This document shows positions 2,004-2,722 of a stretch of 4,395 bases of DNA, piece after piece. The stretch lies in IMG/VR virus record IMGVR_UViG_2681813205_000016, positions 1 to 4,395 of that record. The stretch is one strand, 5' to 3'. The DNA comes from a virus (Duplodnaviria; Heunggongvirae; Uroviricota; Caudoviricetes). Below the pieces are notes generated by a model that had not been told where the DNA came from, did no database searches, and worked only from the letters and a program-made list of their open reading frames with translations. The translations under genes and the position numbers were made by a program. Positions within the stretch are counted from its first letter, which is position 1. The number at the start of each line of letters is the position of its first letter.

Positions 2004-2153
2004 TCACCCCACCAGTCCCGATAACGTCAGGACTCGCCAAGCGGTGGAAAAGAAAATGGCAACCAGAATGACTAAAAATGAAATGCCGACGATTACACAG
2101 AGGATCTTCGCCAGCGTTATGAGTTTATCCGATATCATTAGCCACCACTCCAT
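2004..2153 (-). CDS. Candidate small membrane protein (49 aa), translationally coupled between the Ant-like gene and Rz; unannotated
   Basis: [52 protein letters not shown] with one strongly hydrophobic TM-like segment. Its ATG overlaps the Ant-like stop (TGATG), its stop sits 7 nt before the Rz ATG, and an AAGGCGG SD-like motif is upstream. Below the ORF-track length cutoff. Confidence 0.4.
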
Positions 2154-2722
2154 CAATCCGCCTTTGTTATTTTCCCTTTGTCTGTATCAGCCAGGACAAA
2201 ATCAATCAGCAGATTCGCTTCGTTTATCAATGTGCGGATTTTTGATACATGCGCGGATTTAACCTGTTTCCACTCATTCAGCCCGGTAGCAAACACACTG
2301 GCAATGTTTTTATCCCGTTTCATGTCAGCGCAAGCCTGATTGAGTTCTTCCATCACACTCATTCGACGGGGATTAACGACAAAACCCTTCGTCCAGTATT
2401 CATAGAGAACATCGTCACACTCTTCCTGATACTGGATTACCTTGCCGCGGATTTCGGGTTTTACTTTGTTGGGATTGATGGTTTGTAACCAGCCTGCAAG
2501 TTTTCGAAGCGGCAGGGACACCATATTGCGTCGTTTCCCATCCTCAGCAACCATAACGATTTCCGTTATAGTTGACGCAAAACGCTGTCTTAACTTAGCC
2601 AACTGTGATTGCCAGGCCAGCCCCATCCCCGCAACGACAGGTTTCATGGGAACGTATGGTTCGCCATTATGGTTAACTACATAAAGAGAGTTGCCGTGAA
2701 ACGGCACGGCCATCATATTCAT
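2153..2722 (-). CDS. Antirepressor-like protein (Ant / P22-AR N-terminal-like domain), inserted between endolysin and spanin genes
   Basis: 189-aa ORF with good SD (AAGGAA 8 nt upstream). The N-terminal region (FHGNSLYVVNHNGEPYVPMKPVVAGMGLAWQSQLAKL) resembles the Bro-N/Ant N-terminal pattern. Functional assignment is from recollection of family patterns, not a search. Confidence 0.6.
   Translation of the reverse strand: MNMMAVPFHGNSLYVVNHNGEPYVPMKPVVAGMGLAWQSQLAKLRQRFASTITEIVMVAEDGKRRNMVSLPLRKLAGWLQTINPNKVKPEIRGKVIQYQEECDDVLYEYWTKGFVVNPRRMSVMEELNQACADMKRDKNIASVFATGLNEWKQVKSAHVSKIRTLINEANLLIDFVLADTDKGKITKAD

Follow-up and report, generated by a model that had tools for sequence, protein, structure and literature searches.

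The window analysed here, a stretch of 4,395 nt that makes up positions 1 to 4,395 of the IMG/VR virus record IMGVR_UViG_2681813205_000016, is the late region of an Escherichia coli lambdoid prophage of the kind represented by the Shiga toxin (Stx) phages. We focused on the two genes that separate the endolysin gene R from the spanin gene Rz in its lysis cassette, namely ant, an open reading frame (ORF) of 189 amino acids (aa) whose product resembles the antirepressor Ant, and a small hydrophobic ORF of 49 aa. The lysis genes are all on the minus strand (Table 1), starting with a pinholin gene whose 5' end is cut by the window edge and which the RefSeq neighbours label as a class II holin. It is followed, after a spacer of 687 nt (3527-4213), by R, a signal-anchor-release (SAR) endolysin with a hydrophobic N-terminus (MHEKIKYGLSAAVLALIGAGA, read from the sequence). 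R and Rz form the upstream and downstream edges of a same-strand insert of about 1 kb, which had been reported in an initial annotation of this DNA; the insert is present and all the coordinates given there hold. Specifically, Rz starts 996 nt past the stop of R, the gap between R and ant is 270 nt, the first ATG of the small ORF (ATG1) has one base in common with the ant stop (TGATG), and the ATG of Rz lies 7 nt past the stop of the small ORF, which the ORF listing gives as 50 aa, from a TTG one codon 5' of ATG1. Beyond Rz there are small ORFs, a DUF3950 gene and an HNH endonuclease gene.

Table 1 Features of the lysis cassette and of the ant leader, with two further leader copies in phage records
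Feature	Position	Strand	Remarks
S21-type (class II) pinholin, partial	4214 to beyond 4395	-	Pfam Phage_holin_2_1, 1.2e-25
SAR-type endolysin R, 177 aa	2993-3526	-	Pfam Phage_lysozyme, 1.5e-24
Terminator-like hairpin AGGCA/UGCCU, 9-nt loop, then U-rich run	2854-2883	-	5' end of the ant cassette
Short hairpin 2, GCGC-AUCUCAC-GCGC	2839-2853	-	Between the terminator-like hairpin and the leader
Structured leader RNA of ant, ~125 nt	2717-2844	-	Covariance model 40.4 bits, E 1.1e-7; match includes the ant ATG
Ant-like ORF, 189 aa	2153-2722	-	AAGGA 8 nt 5' of the ATG (2720-2722)
Small hydrophobic ORF, 49 aa from ATG1 (2151-2153)	2004-2153	-	TGATG overlap with the ant stop
Rz i-spanin, 155 aa	1529-1996	-	Pfam Phage_lysis, 1.5e-39
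Rz1 o-spanin, inside Rz	1570-1776	-	Lipobox-like VVSAC in the Rz1 frame
Leader before P22 rha	L097 (NC_002371) 39516-39649		
Leader before phi80 rha	L169 (JX871397) 7657-7781		Just past the annotated terminator

The order R, ant, small ORF, Rz is real but already known and annotated, the two inserted genes being accessory genes of Stx-type prophages. A megablast search with positions 1900-2800 retrieved 293 phage records, 258 of which cover most of the query at identities of up to 96.2%, and these records annotate the succession 'antirepressor', 'hypothetical protein' and 'endopeptidase Rz'. The BP-4795 record lists ant as ORF49 and the small ORF as ORF50 (hypothetical, 147 nt, one-base overlap), followed by Rz, and RefSeq (PGAP) calls both genes in O157:H7 chromosomes, as WP_001056806.1 (ant) and WP_000539792.1 (small ORF). 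The 933W record, from 1999, already places ant between R and Rz with the note 'possible regulation of host cell lysis', and in PHROGs the small ORF falls in phrog_4906 (1.7e-32), labelled as of unknown function. The small ORF, believed to be uncalled in the initial annotation, therefore has a RefSeq accession, an ORF number and a PHROG, and the pairing, suspected there to be undescribed, has been public in its gene order since 933W and BP-4795.

The window differs from the Stx phages in nothing essential. The loci of 933W, BP-4795 and RefSeq share with it the gene order, the strand, the one-base overlap and the spacing to Rz, and the DNA identity of the Stx-phage records over 1900-2800 is 95.8-96.2%. 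At the protein level BP-4795 and the RefSeq locus L002 are 95% (Ant-like protein) and 91% (small ORF) identical to the window, and IMG/VR contigs reach 98.9% and 100%, respectively. The window carries a 49-aa variant of the small ORF beginning MEWWL, the commoner one being of 48 aa and beginning MGWL. Parts of the window are matched in 4948 of 5426 complete E. coli genomes.

The Ant-like protein contains a P22_AR_N domain at residues 5-113 (Pfam, 1.9e-44) and an ORF11CD3 domain at residues 122-164 (2.6e-6). Its N-terminal part is 48% identical to P22 Ant over about 125 residues (Ant residues 10-136 only, with nothing aligned past residue 126), and it covers profile positions 7-210 of the 317 in phrog_524, 'anti-repressor Ant'. 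An AlphaFold 2 model (mean predicted local distance difference test score 70.7) has an alpha/beta N-domain followed by a long helical hairpin, and Foldseek matched it to Ant-N and Bro-N viral models, so the Ant/Bro-like character that the initial annotation had assigned to the protein is well founded for the N-domain. It does not extend to the C-domain: P22 Ant, of 300 aa, has P22_AR_C (7.2e-31), which is missing from the window protein, whereas ORF11CD3 is also the C-domain of P22 Rha, with marginal BLASTP similarity there (E 0.015). The settings differ too, since P22 ant lies in the arc/mnt/sar immunity region (immI) and the window gene in a lysis cassette, with no arc/mnt neighbours. Pfam detected no Phage_pRha domain in the window protein, which has no membrane or peptidoglycan-related domain either; searches of NCBIfam and PADLOC gave no match and a sequence search of the PDB gave one spurious match to a repeat protein.

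Domain-shuffled phage regulators built from Bro-N, KilA-N, Rha, P22_AR_N, ANT, ORF11CD3 and other domains have been listed as a Bro network (PMC10111431), and P22_AR_N plus ORF11CD3 gives the window protein the at least two interchangeable network domains by which its members are defined. Judged by this domain composition, it is a domain-shuffled member of the Bro network, a hybrid of an Ant N-domain and a Rha C-domain. The name 'Ant' is thus misleading, only the N-domain being that of Ant while the C-domain and, as described below, the upstream control region are those of Rha, and inferring anti-repression from the name is unsafe. Frameshift-split copies of ant, either pseudogenes or assembly errors, were seen at L008 (1934-2650), L015, L024, L036, L037, L051, L054, L065, L066 and L069; at L008 an in-frame fusion joins ant to the small ORF, giving 238 aa.

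Homologues with both domains, of 174-212 aa and mostly of 187-190 aa, occur across the Enterobacterales, in Salmonella, Photorhabdus, Xenorhabdus, Serratia, Proteus, Providencia, Hamiltonella, Sodalis, Arsenophonus and others. Their gene neighbourhoods are lysis cassettes of different make: holin_8 / holin_3_7, a GH108 endolysin, ant and a 60-aa lipoprotein in Salmonella; an S21-like holin, lysozyme, ant, other genes, KilA-N and Rz in Hamiltonella; lysozyme, ant and DUF2570 / LysC spanins in Serratia; holin_3_1, endolysin, ant and DUF2570 / LysC in Xenorhabdus; holin_3_1, endolysin, ant and Rz in Proteus; and holin, endolysin, a 74-aa membrane ORF, Rz and then ant in Photorhabdus. Among the Pfam neighbours of 16 P22_AR_N plus ORF11CD3 loci, all from different species, we counted Phage_lysozyme 9 times, GH108 once, about 13 matches to holin families, Rz 5 times and LysC once. 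The 27 loci in which P22_AR_N is joined to another C-domain have instead ANT, KilA-N, Rha, RelB/ParE, YafO, Fic and RexA as neighbours, and their top 25 neighbour families include a single holin but neither lysozyme nor Rz. The orthologues of about 188 aa thus adjoin or occupy unrelated lysis cassettes in at least seven genera, lying between endolysin and spanin or just after Rz where this could be resolved, an association that appears to be new. For phages whose lysis sets Shiga toxin free, this position hints at a role late in infection or tied to lysis.

Some further observations concern these cassettes. In the Qin prophage of E. coli K-12 R overlaps Rz directly, with no insert. In the Salmonella locus L093 the gene for the 60-aa protein (4064-4246) overlaps the ant stop by 4 nt, and the protein has a lipoprotein signal (…LLVGC|AS…); as no Rz-family gene was detected nearby, it could act as an o-spanin or be a spanin of the unimolecular type. 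The 74-aa ORF of Photorhabdus (L088, 2661-2885) lies between endolysin and Rz, overlaps the start of Rz, has two hydrophobic segments and shows no sequence relation to the small ORF of E. coli.

The ant orthologues are also preceded by 140-270 nt of non-coding sequence that is conserved between genera, and single-sequence folds from five genera gave the same long hairpin, in which the Shine-Dalgarno sequence is base-paired. In the window the leader folds into a long hairpin of helices P1, P1b, P2, P3 and an apical P4 (2778-2790), where P1 joins CCUUU (2818-2822) to AAAGG (2732-2736) over most of the Shine-Dalgarno AAGGA (2731-2735), and a long-range pairing connects PK5, CACAGAA (2823-2829), to PK3, UUCUGUG (2770-2776). 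The initial annotation had credited ant with a strong ribosome-binding site of its own; the AAGG of this site is predicted to be paired in the conserved hairpin. Since alignments made with MAFFT only misaligned the helices, and RNAalifold then gave a single helix, a covariance model (R1) was built from a seed of four sequences with a hand-checked structure. The model found 46 leader copies in 83 sources, none of them adjoining the 27 genes with other C-domains and none in the loci that lack ant.

In the alignment of 39 distinct copies, fitted to the model, 94.4% of the cells were paired and 29 of 31 pairs showed compensatory changes, a level reached in none of 500 shuffles, the slid controls giving 31-53%. 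Two further tests are partly independent of the fit to the model. RNAalifold, run on the same alignment, returned the same helices, with compensatory changes in 29 of 32 pairs and a covariation term of -5.38. The long-range pairing, between the 12 nt just 5' of the hairpin and the 3' part of the apical loop, reached at least six contiguous pairs in 31 of 34 distinct copies, with sequences as varied as CACAGAG/CUCUGUG, CCACCGA/UCGGUGG and CAUCGAG/CUCGAUG, among others; the mean number of pairs was 6.5 with the own partner versus 4.3 with that of another copy (permutation p < 1/5000). The long hairpin and the long-range pairing may form a joint compact fold or represent alternative states. The excess of G-U over A-C cells (86 versus 20) indicates that the RNA is made from the ant strand. 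An opposite-strand small RNA was considered and rejected on the basis of this excess and of the U-run, which follows the hairpin on the ant strand only.

Two small hairpins stand upstream of the leader. The terminator-like one is weak in the E. coli copy of the window but strong elsewhere (GC stem plus U5-7 in other genera), and a GC hairpin with a U-run is found no more than 80 nt 5' of the leader in 33 of the 39 distinct copies; the phi80 record annotates a terminator at the matching place before rha, and homology with the loci lacking ant ends just upstream of this hairpin. Hairpin 2 has a stem that differs by genus yet remains complementary, by eye (GCGUAC/GUACGC, GCGCC/GGCGC, GCAC/GUGC). 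A scan of 1996-2992, able to detect consensus promoters only, found no sigma-70-like promoter, and none was found by eye or by consensus scan between the terminator-like hairpin and the leader. This is compatible with the late-operon expression proposed in the initial annotation; the same scan listed weak terminator-like sites within the insert, at 2780-2799 and 2692-2710, and did not flag the hairpin at 2854-2883. The ant gene does not fit the definition of a moron, since no sigma-70-like promoter of its own was found and the conserved terminator-like hairpin stands upstream, not downstream.

Antirepressor-type genes checked by RNA pairing at the ribosome-binding site or near it are familiar from P1 (c4 RNA and icd-ant), P22 (sar and ant) and Gifsy-1 (IsrK and anrP). 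In those systems the RNA is antisense or acts in trans, whereas the ant leader combines an intramolecular hairpin with a long-range pairing; sar is also present in the P22 record. Rfam 15 gave no match at E <= 1 over the leader, for the window and nine loci from other genera (C4 and isrK included among the families), and our literature searches on ORF11CD3, or on an RNA motif 5' of rha/kilA-N genes, returned annotation-level mentions only. The ant leader therefore appears to be a new, uncatalogued RNA.

Copies of this leader are not confined to ant. Apart from P22 and phi80 rha (Table 1), the leader precedes a second gene in phi80, rha in phiON-2011, KilA-N plus ORF11CD3 genes located after Rz in E. 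coli prophages, KilA-N or Rha genes in Hamiltonella, Arsenophonus and Symbiopectobacterium, and a TerB-like gene before the holin in Salmonella. The sister architectures Rha plus ORF11CD3 and KilA-N plus ORF11CD3 thus sit behind the same leader as the Ant-like gene. The rha genes of P22 and phi80 share with it ORF11CD3, a terminator and structured leader upstream, and a late-operon place by the lysis genes; they differ in having a Phage_pRha N-domain and in lying just after Rz/Rz1, the Ant-like gene carrying P22_AR_N and lying before Rz. A passage of PMC4936722, citing Mozola & Friedman 1985 and Henthorn & Friedman 1995, states that Rha is detrimental to lytic growth in hosts deficient in integration host factor (IHF), and a note in the phi80 record also reports this Rha/IHF effect on lytic growth.

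Taken together, these results lead us to propose, tentatively and as a possibility that we take seriously without calling it probable, that the leader is an undescribed class of cis-regulatory RNA that gates the translation of late Bro-network genes, whether ant-like, P22 and phi80 rha or kilA-N, in temperate phages across the Enterobacterales, and that the protein of about 188 aa is a positionally conserved component of lysis cassettes. If so, the leader could explain the old observation of IHF-dependent rha expression, and it would offer a handle on the silencing of late accessory regulators as well as on the Rha/IHF phenotype.

Two side observations arise from the leader copies. The motif and the 5' ends annotated for rha in P22 and phi80 overlap, which suggests later starts for these genes, at 39644 and not 39575 in P22 and at locus position 7776 (43775 in the record) and not 7740 in phi80; the shortened Rha proteins keep complete Phage_pRha and ORF11CD3 domains. 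Moreover, in some E. coli prophages two leader copies form direct repeats around ant, the small ORF and Rz, one before ant and the other before a rha or kilA-N gene past Rz (L003, 1808-1937 and 3175-3298; L016, 466-595 and 1836-1960; L030, 1548-1675 and 2913-3046; and L027). Such repeats could mediate deletion or exchange of the segment between them.

The small ORF has a history of its own. It encodes one hydrophobic segment (mean Kyte-Doolittle hydropathy 3.27 over 19 residues) and was found full-length by tblastn in 276 phage records, at identities down to 67%. In a collection of 5.8 billion proteins it is represented by 61 clusters, every organism-named one of which is from E. coli or a Stx phage, and these fall into two length classes, of 48-49 and 43-44 aa. 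In all 87 loci examined, the last 43 codons, which we call the core, form an open frame with no indel. The first five (MEWWL) lie outside it: the MGWL and MEWWL variants differ by a one-codon indel, codon 3 is a stop in two loci (L030 and L031), and the phages without ant begin at MSDKL. The codon-3 stops and the MSDKL starts suggest that the internal ATG2 (2136-2138), which has GGAG 9 nt upstream and would give 44 aa, may be the true start, at 2138. The single-pass membrane ORF proposed in the initial annotation is therefore borne out, as a conserved hydrophobic peptide, by the records, the loci, the hydropathy and the substitution pattern given below, the 49-aa frame being conserved over its last 43 codons and not over its first five.

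This peptide fits neither the holins and antiholins nor the spanins. Pfam, NCBIfam and PADLOC gave no match; it has the single hydrophobic segment but no Pfam holin match that a holin or antiholin might show, and its PHROG family has no assigned function. As a spanin it would lack a lipobox and, at 43-49 aa, almost any extramembrane part, and Rz and Rz1 are intact downstream. A duplicated transmembrane segment of Rz was rejected as its origin, there being no BLASTP similarity.

The junction between R and Rz appears to collect mini membrane ORFs. The phages without ant carry other tiny hydrophobic ORFs there, in varying order (L004 and L006, 2385-2498; L005, 2166-2282 and about 2290-2380). One of them, VTDDISRALAFAIKWVAVGVAVSPMLYGLAKLVIALKS, matches phrog_1115, 3246 and 4493, and a third reads MSAELIRAMAFAIRIVAIAVLVWAIRWW.

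Comparison of loci with and without ant bears directly on whether the two genes belong together. PhiR12_2_star, PhiR12_3, vB_EcoS-783R2 and three IMG/VR contigs (L004-L006 and L085-L087) have the small ORF between R and Rz but no ant. When loci with and without ant were aligned, homology stopped about 95 nt past the R stop and returned 18 nt past ATG1, at the start of the core, so that the exchanged segment consists of the leader, ant and five codons. At the other end, Rz is 50-100% identical in related loci behind an almost constant small ORF, which marks this junction as a mosaic boundary. Unrelated genes follow the ant orthologue in Salmonella, Hamiltonella, Photorhabdus, Serratia, Xenorhabdus and Proteus, and about 10 of the 77 E. 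coli copies of ant are frameshifted next to an intact small ORF. Ant and the small ORF are therefore separate, already annotated accessory genes of the Stx-type lambdoid late operon and not one coupled module.

The data establish which genes are present, that the two inserted genes are independent, their domain composition, the place beside the lysis genes, and the conservation and covariation of the leader. On this basis we favour, with some reserve, a working model. The ant cassette is self-contained, consisting of the terminator-like hairpin, the leader RNA of about 125 nt with its predicted pseudoknot, and the ORF. Since no promoter was found in the insert and the hairpin stands upstream of ant, ant and the small ORF would be transcribed only within the late transcript, by Q-modified polymerase reading through from pR'. 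Since the leader pairs most of the Shine-Dalgarno sequence, translation of ant would stay low until some factor opened or cleaved the hairpin. The Ant-like protein is, we tentatively infer, most likely a Rha-like late regulator that would act on DNA or regulatory proteins rather than a lysis effector. The small ORF would be native to the endolysin-Rz junction, with or without ant, and insertion of ant would have added to it the five-codon extension and the overlapping TGATG; it would be translated from its own GGAG-ATG, or via coupling to ant. Its product would insert in the inner membrane and modulate the pinholin/SAR-endolysin/spanin pathway; its position suggests, tentatively, that it is most likely a membrane accessory of the lysis pathway that might, for example, tune timing. 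The small membrane peptide encoded beside Rz is an inexpensive candidate for such a timing factor in systems built on a pinholin and a SAR endolysin. Small membrane proteins encoded in lysis cassettes that modulate lysis are known, namely LysA of P2 and gp25 ('releasin') of Mu, which are likewise encoded between or beside endolysin and spanin genes, and the Mu endolysin is of the SAR type, as in the window. The analogy is positional only, no sequence relation having been found (no Pfam or PHROG functional match), and P2 LysA has several transmembrane segments whereas the small ORF has one.

Three other explanations have to be set against this model. The initial annotation had seen in ant and the small ORF a translationally coupled module, possibly for superinfection exclusion, defence or anti-defence, a reading in keeping with the TGATG overlap of the window and most E. 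coli copies and with the joint presence of both genes in more than 250 phage records. The core, however, occurs without ant and ant without the small ORF, homology breaks at the core start, other genera have other 3' partners, and the overlapping five codons are precisely the unconserved ones, with their stops in two loci and their one-codon indel variant. Neither protein matches PADLOC-DB 2.0 (E <= 0.01), and no sigma-70-like promoter was found in the insert for the expression in lysogens that exclusion would require, so we regard a coupled module as very improbable. Only slightly less improbable is that the small ORF is a non-functional hydrophobic frame held open by recent descent, or a leftover spacer 5' of Rz. 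The ORF is very short, has no Pfam or NCBIfam family and was found only in phages of E. coli and Shigella, and our searches turned up no expression data. Yet its frame is open in all the loci, without indels, including lineages with about 30 substitutions per 129 nt; the variable sites fall at codon positions 1, 2 and 3 in the proportion 14, 11 and 22, the replacements are hydrophobic for hydrophobic, and the Shine-Dalgarno sequence is kept in both genomic contexts, with and without ant. The pairwise ratio of nonsynonymous to synonymous substitution rates (dN/dS) of about 0.25-0.4 in the divergent lineages, together with the open, indel-free core, points to moderate purifying selection on a hydrophobic peptide.

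For the Ant-like protein the main rival of a Rha-like role is that of a dedicated lysis regulator, expressed late and acting directly on the expression or timing of holin, endolysin or spanin. The orthologue separates the endolysin gene from the spanin genes in E. coli, Salmonella, Hamiltonella, Serratia, Xenorhabdus and Proteus, and directly follows Rz in Photorhabdus; this position holds although the holin, endolysin and spanin families differ, the relatives with other C-domains are found outside lysis cassettes, and the 933W annotation had already raised such a function. Against it, the protein is a soluble one made of DNA-binding-type Bro-network domains, with nothing in it directed to membrane or peptidoglycan; ant is absent from the working cassettes of P22, phi80 and Qin; and about 13% of the E. 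coli copies are frameshifted. Moreover, past Rz or ahead of the holin the same leader cassette brings rha/kilA-N genes, which gives the region the look of a general landing zone. A direct lysis regulator is thus unlikely in our view, and we retain a Rha-like late regulator behind a gating leader as the preferred interpretation of ant. Several points nevertheless weigh against the interpretation as a whole. That ant keeps its place between endolysin and spanin although the cassettes are unrelated could indicate that it acts directly in lysis after all. Compared with shuffled sequences, the leader folds are stable in other genera (z from -3.3 to -5.8), but the window copy has z = -0.96 and, with its weak terminator-like hairpin, the gating in E. 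coli may be leaky. The fit of the leader alignment to the model inflates the pair counts somewhat. For the small ORF, its detection only in E. coli and Shigella phages means that its conservation spans limited divergence, and its dN/dS rests on about 30 substitutions. Finally, no experiments on either gene came to light in our literature searches, which gave annotation-level mentions only.

Outside the insert, positions 1-98 of the window match no E. coli genome, the alignments beginning at 99. They contain homopolymer runs and AGATTTGTATAAGAGACAC, a degenerate copy of the Nextera mosaic end, whose reference sequence we take to be AGATGTGTATAAGAGACAG, and are probably adapter or low-quality read sequence at the contig end, not biology. 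Just 3' of Rz, an 80-aa ORF (1281-1523, minus strand) matches only positions 96-172 of the 291-position phrog_2571 and resembles a fragment of a longer gene; RefSeq has a hypothetical gene of 225 nt at that place. In the holin-endolysin spacer an ORF (3644-3958, plus strand) runs counter to the lysis genes; it matches phrog_1853 and is listed in RefSeq as WP_000138558.1, a hypothetical protein. The spacer occurs in this form, with 99% identity or more, in 622 E. coli records, other Stx phages having a same-strand YdfR-family gene instead.

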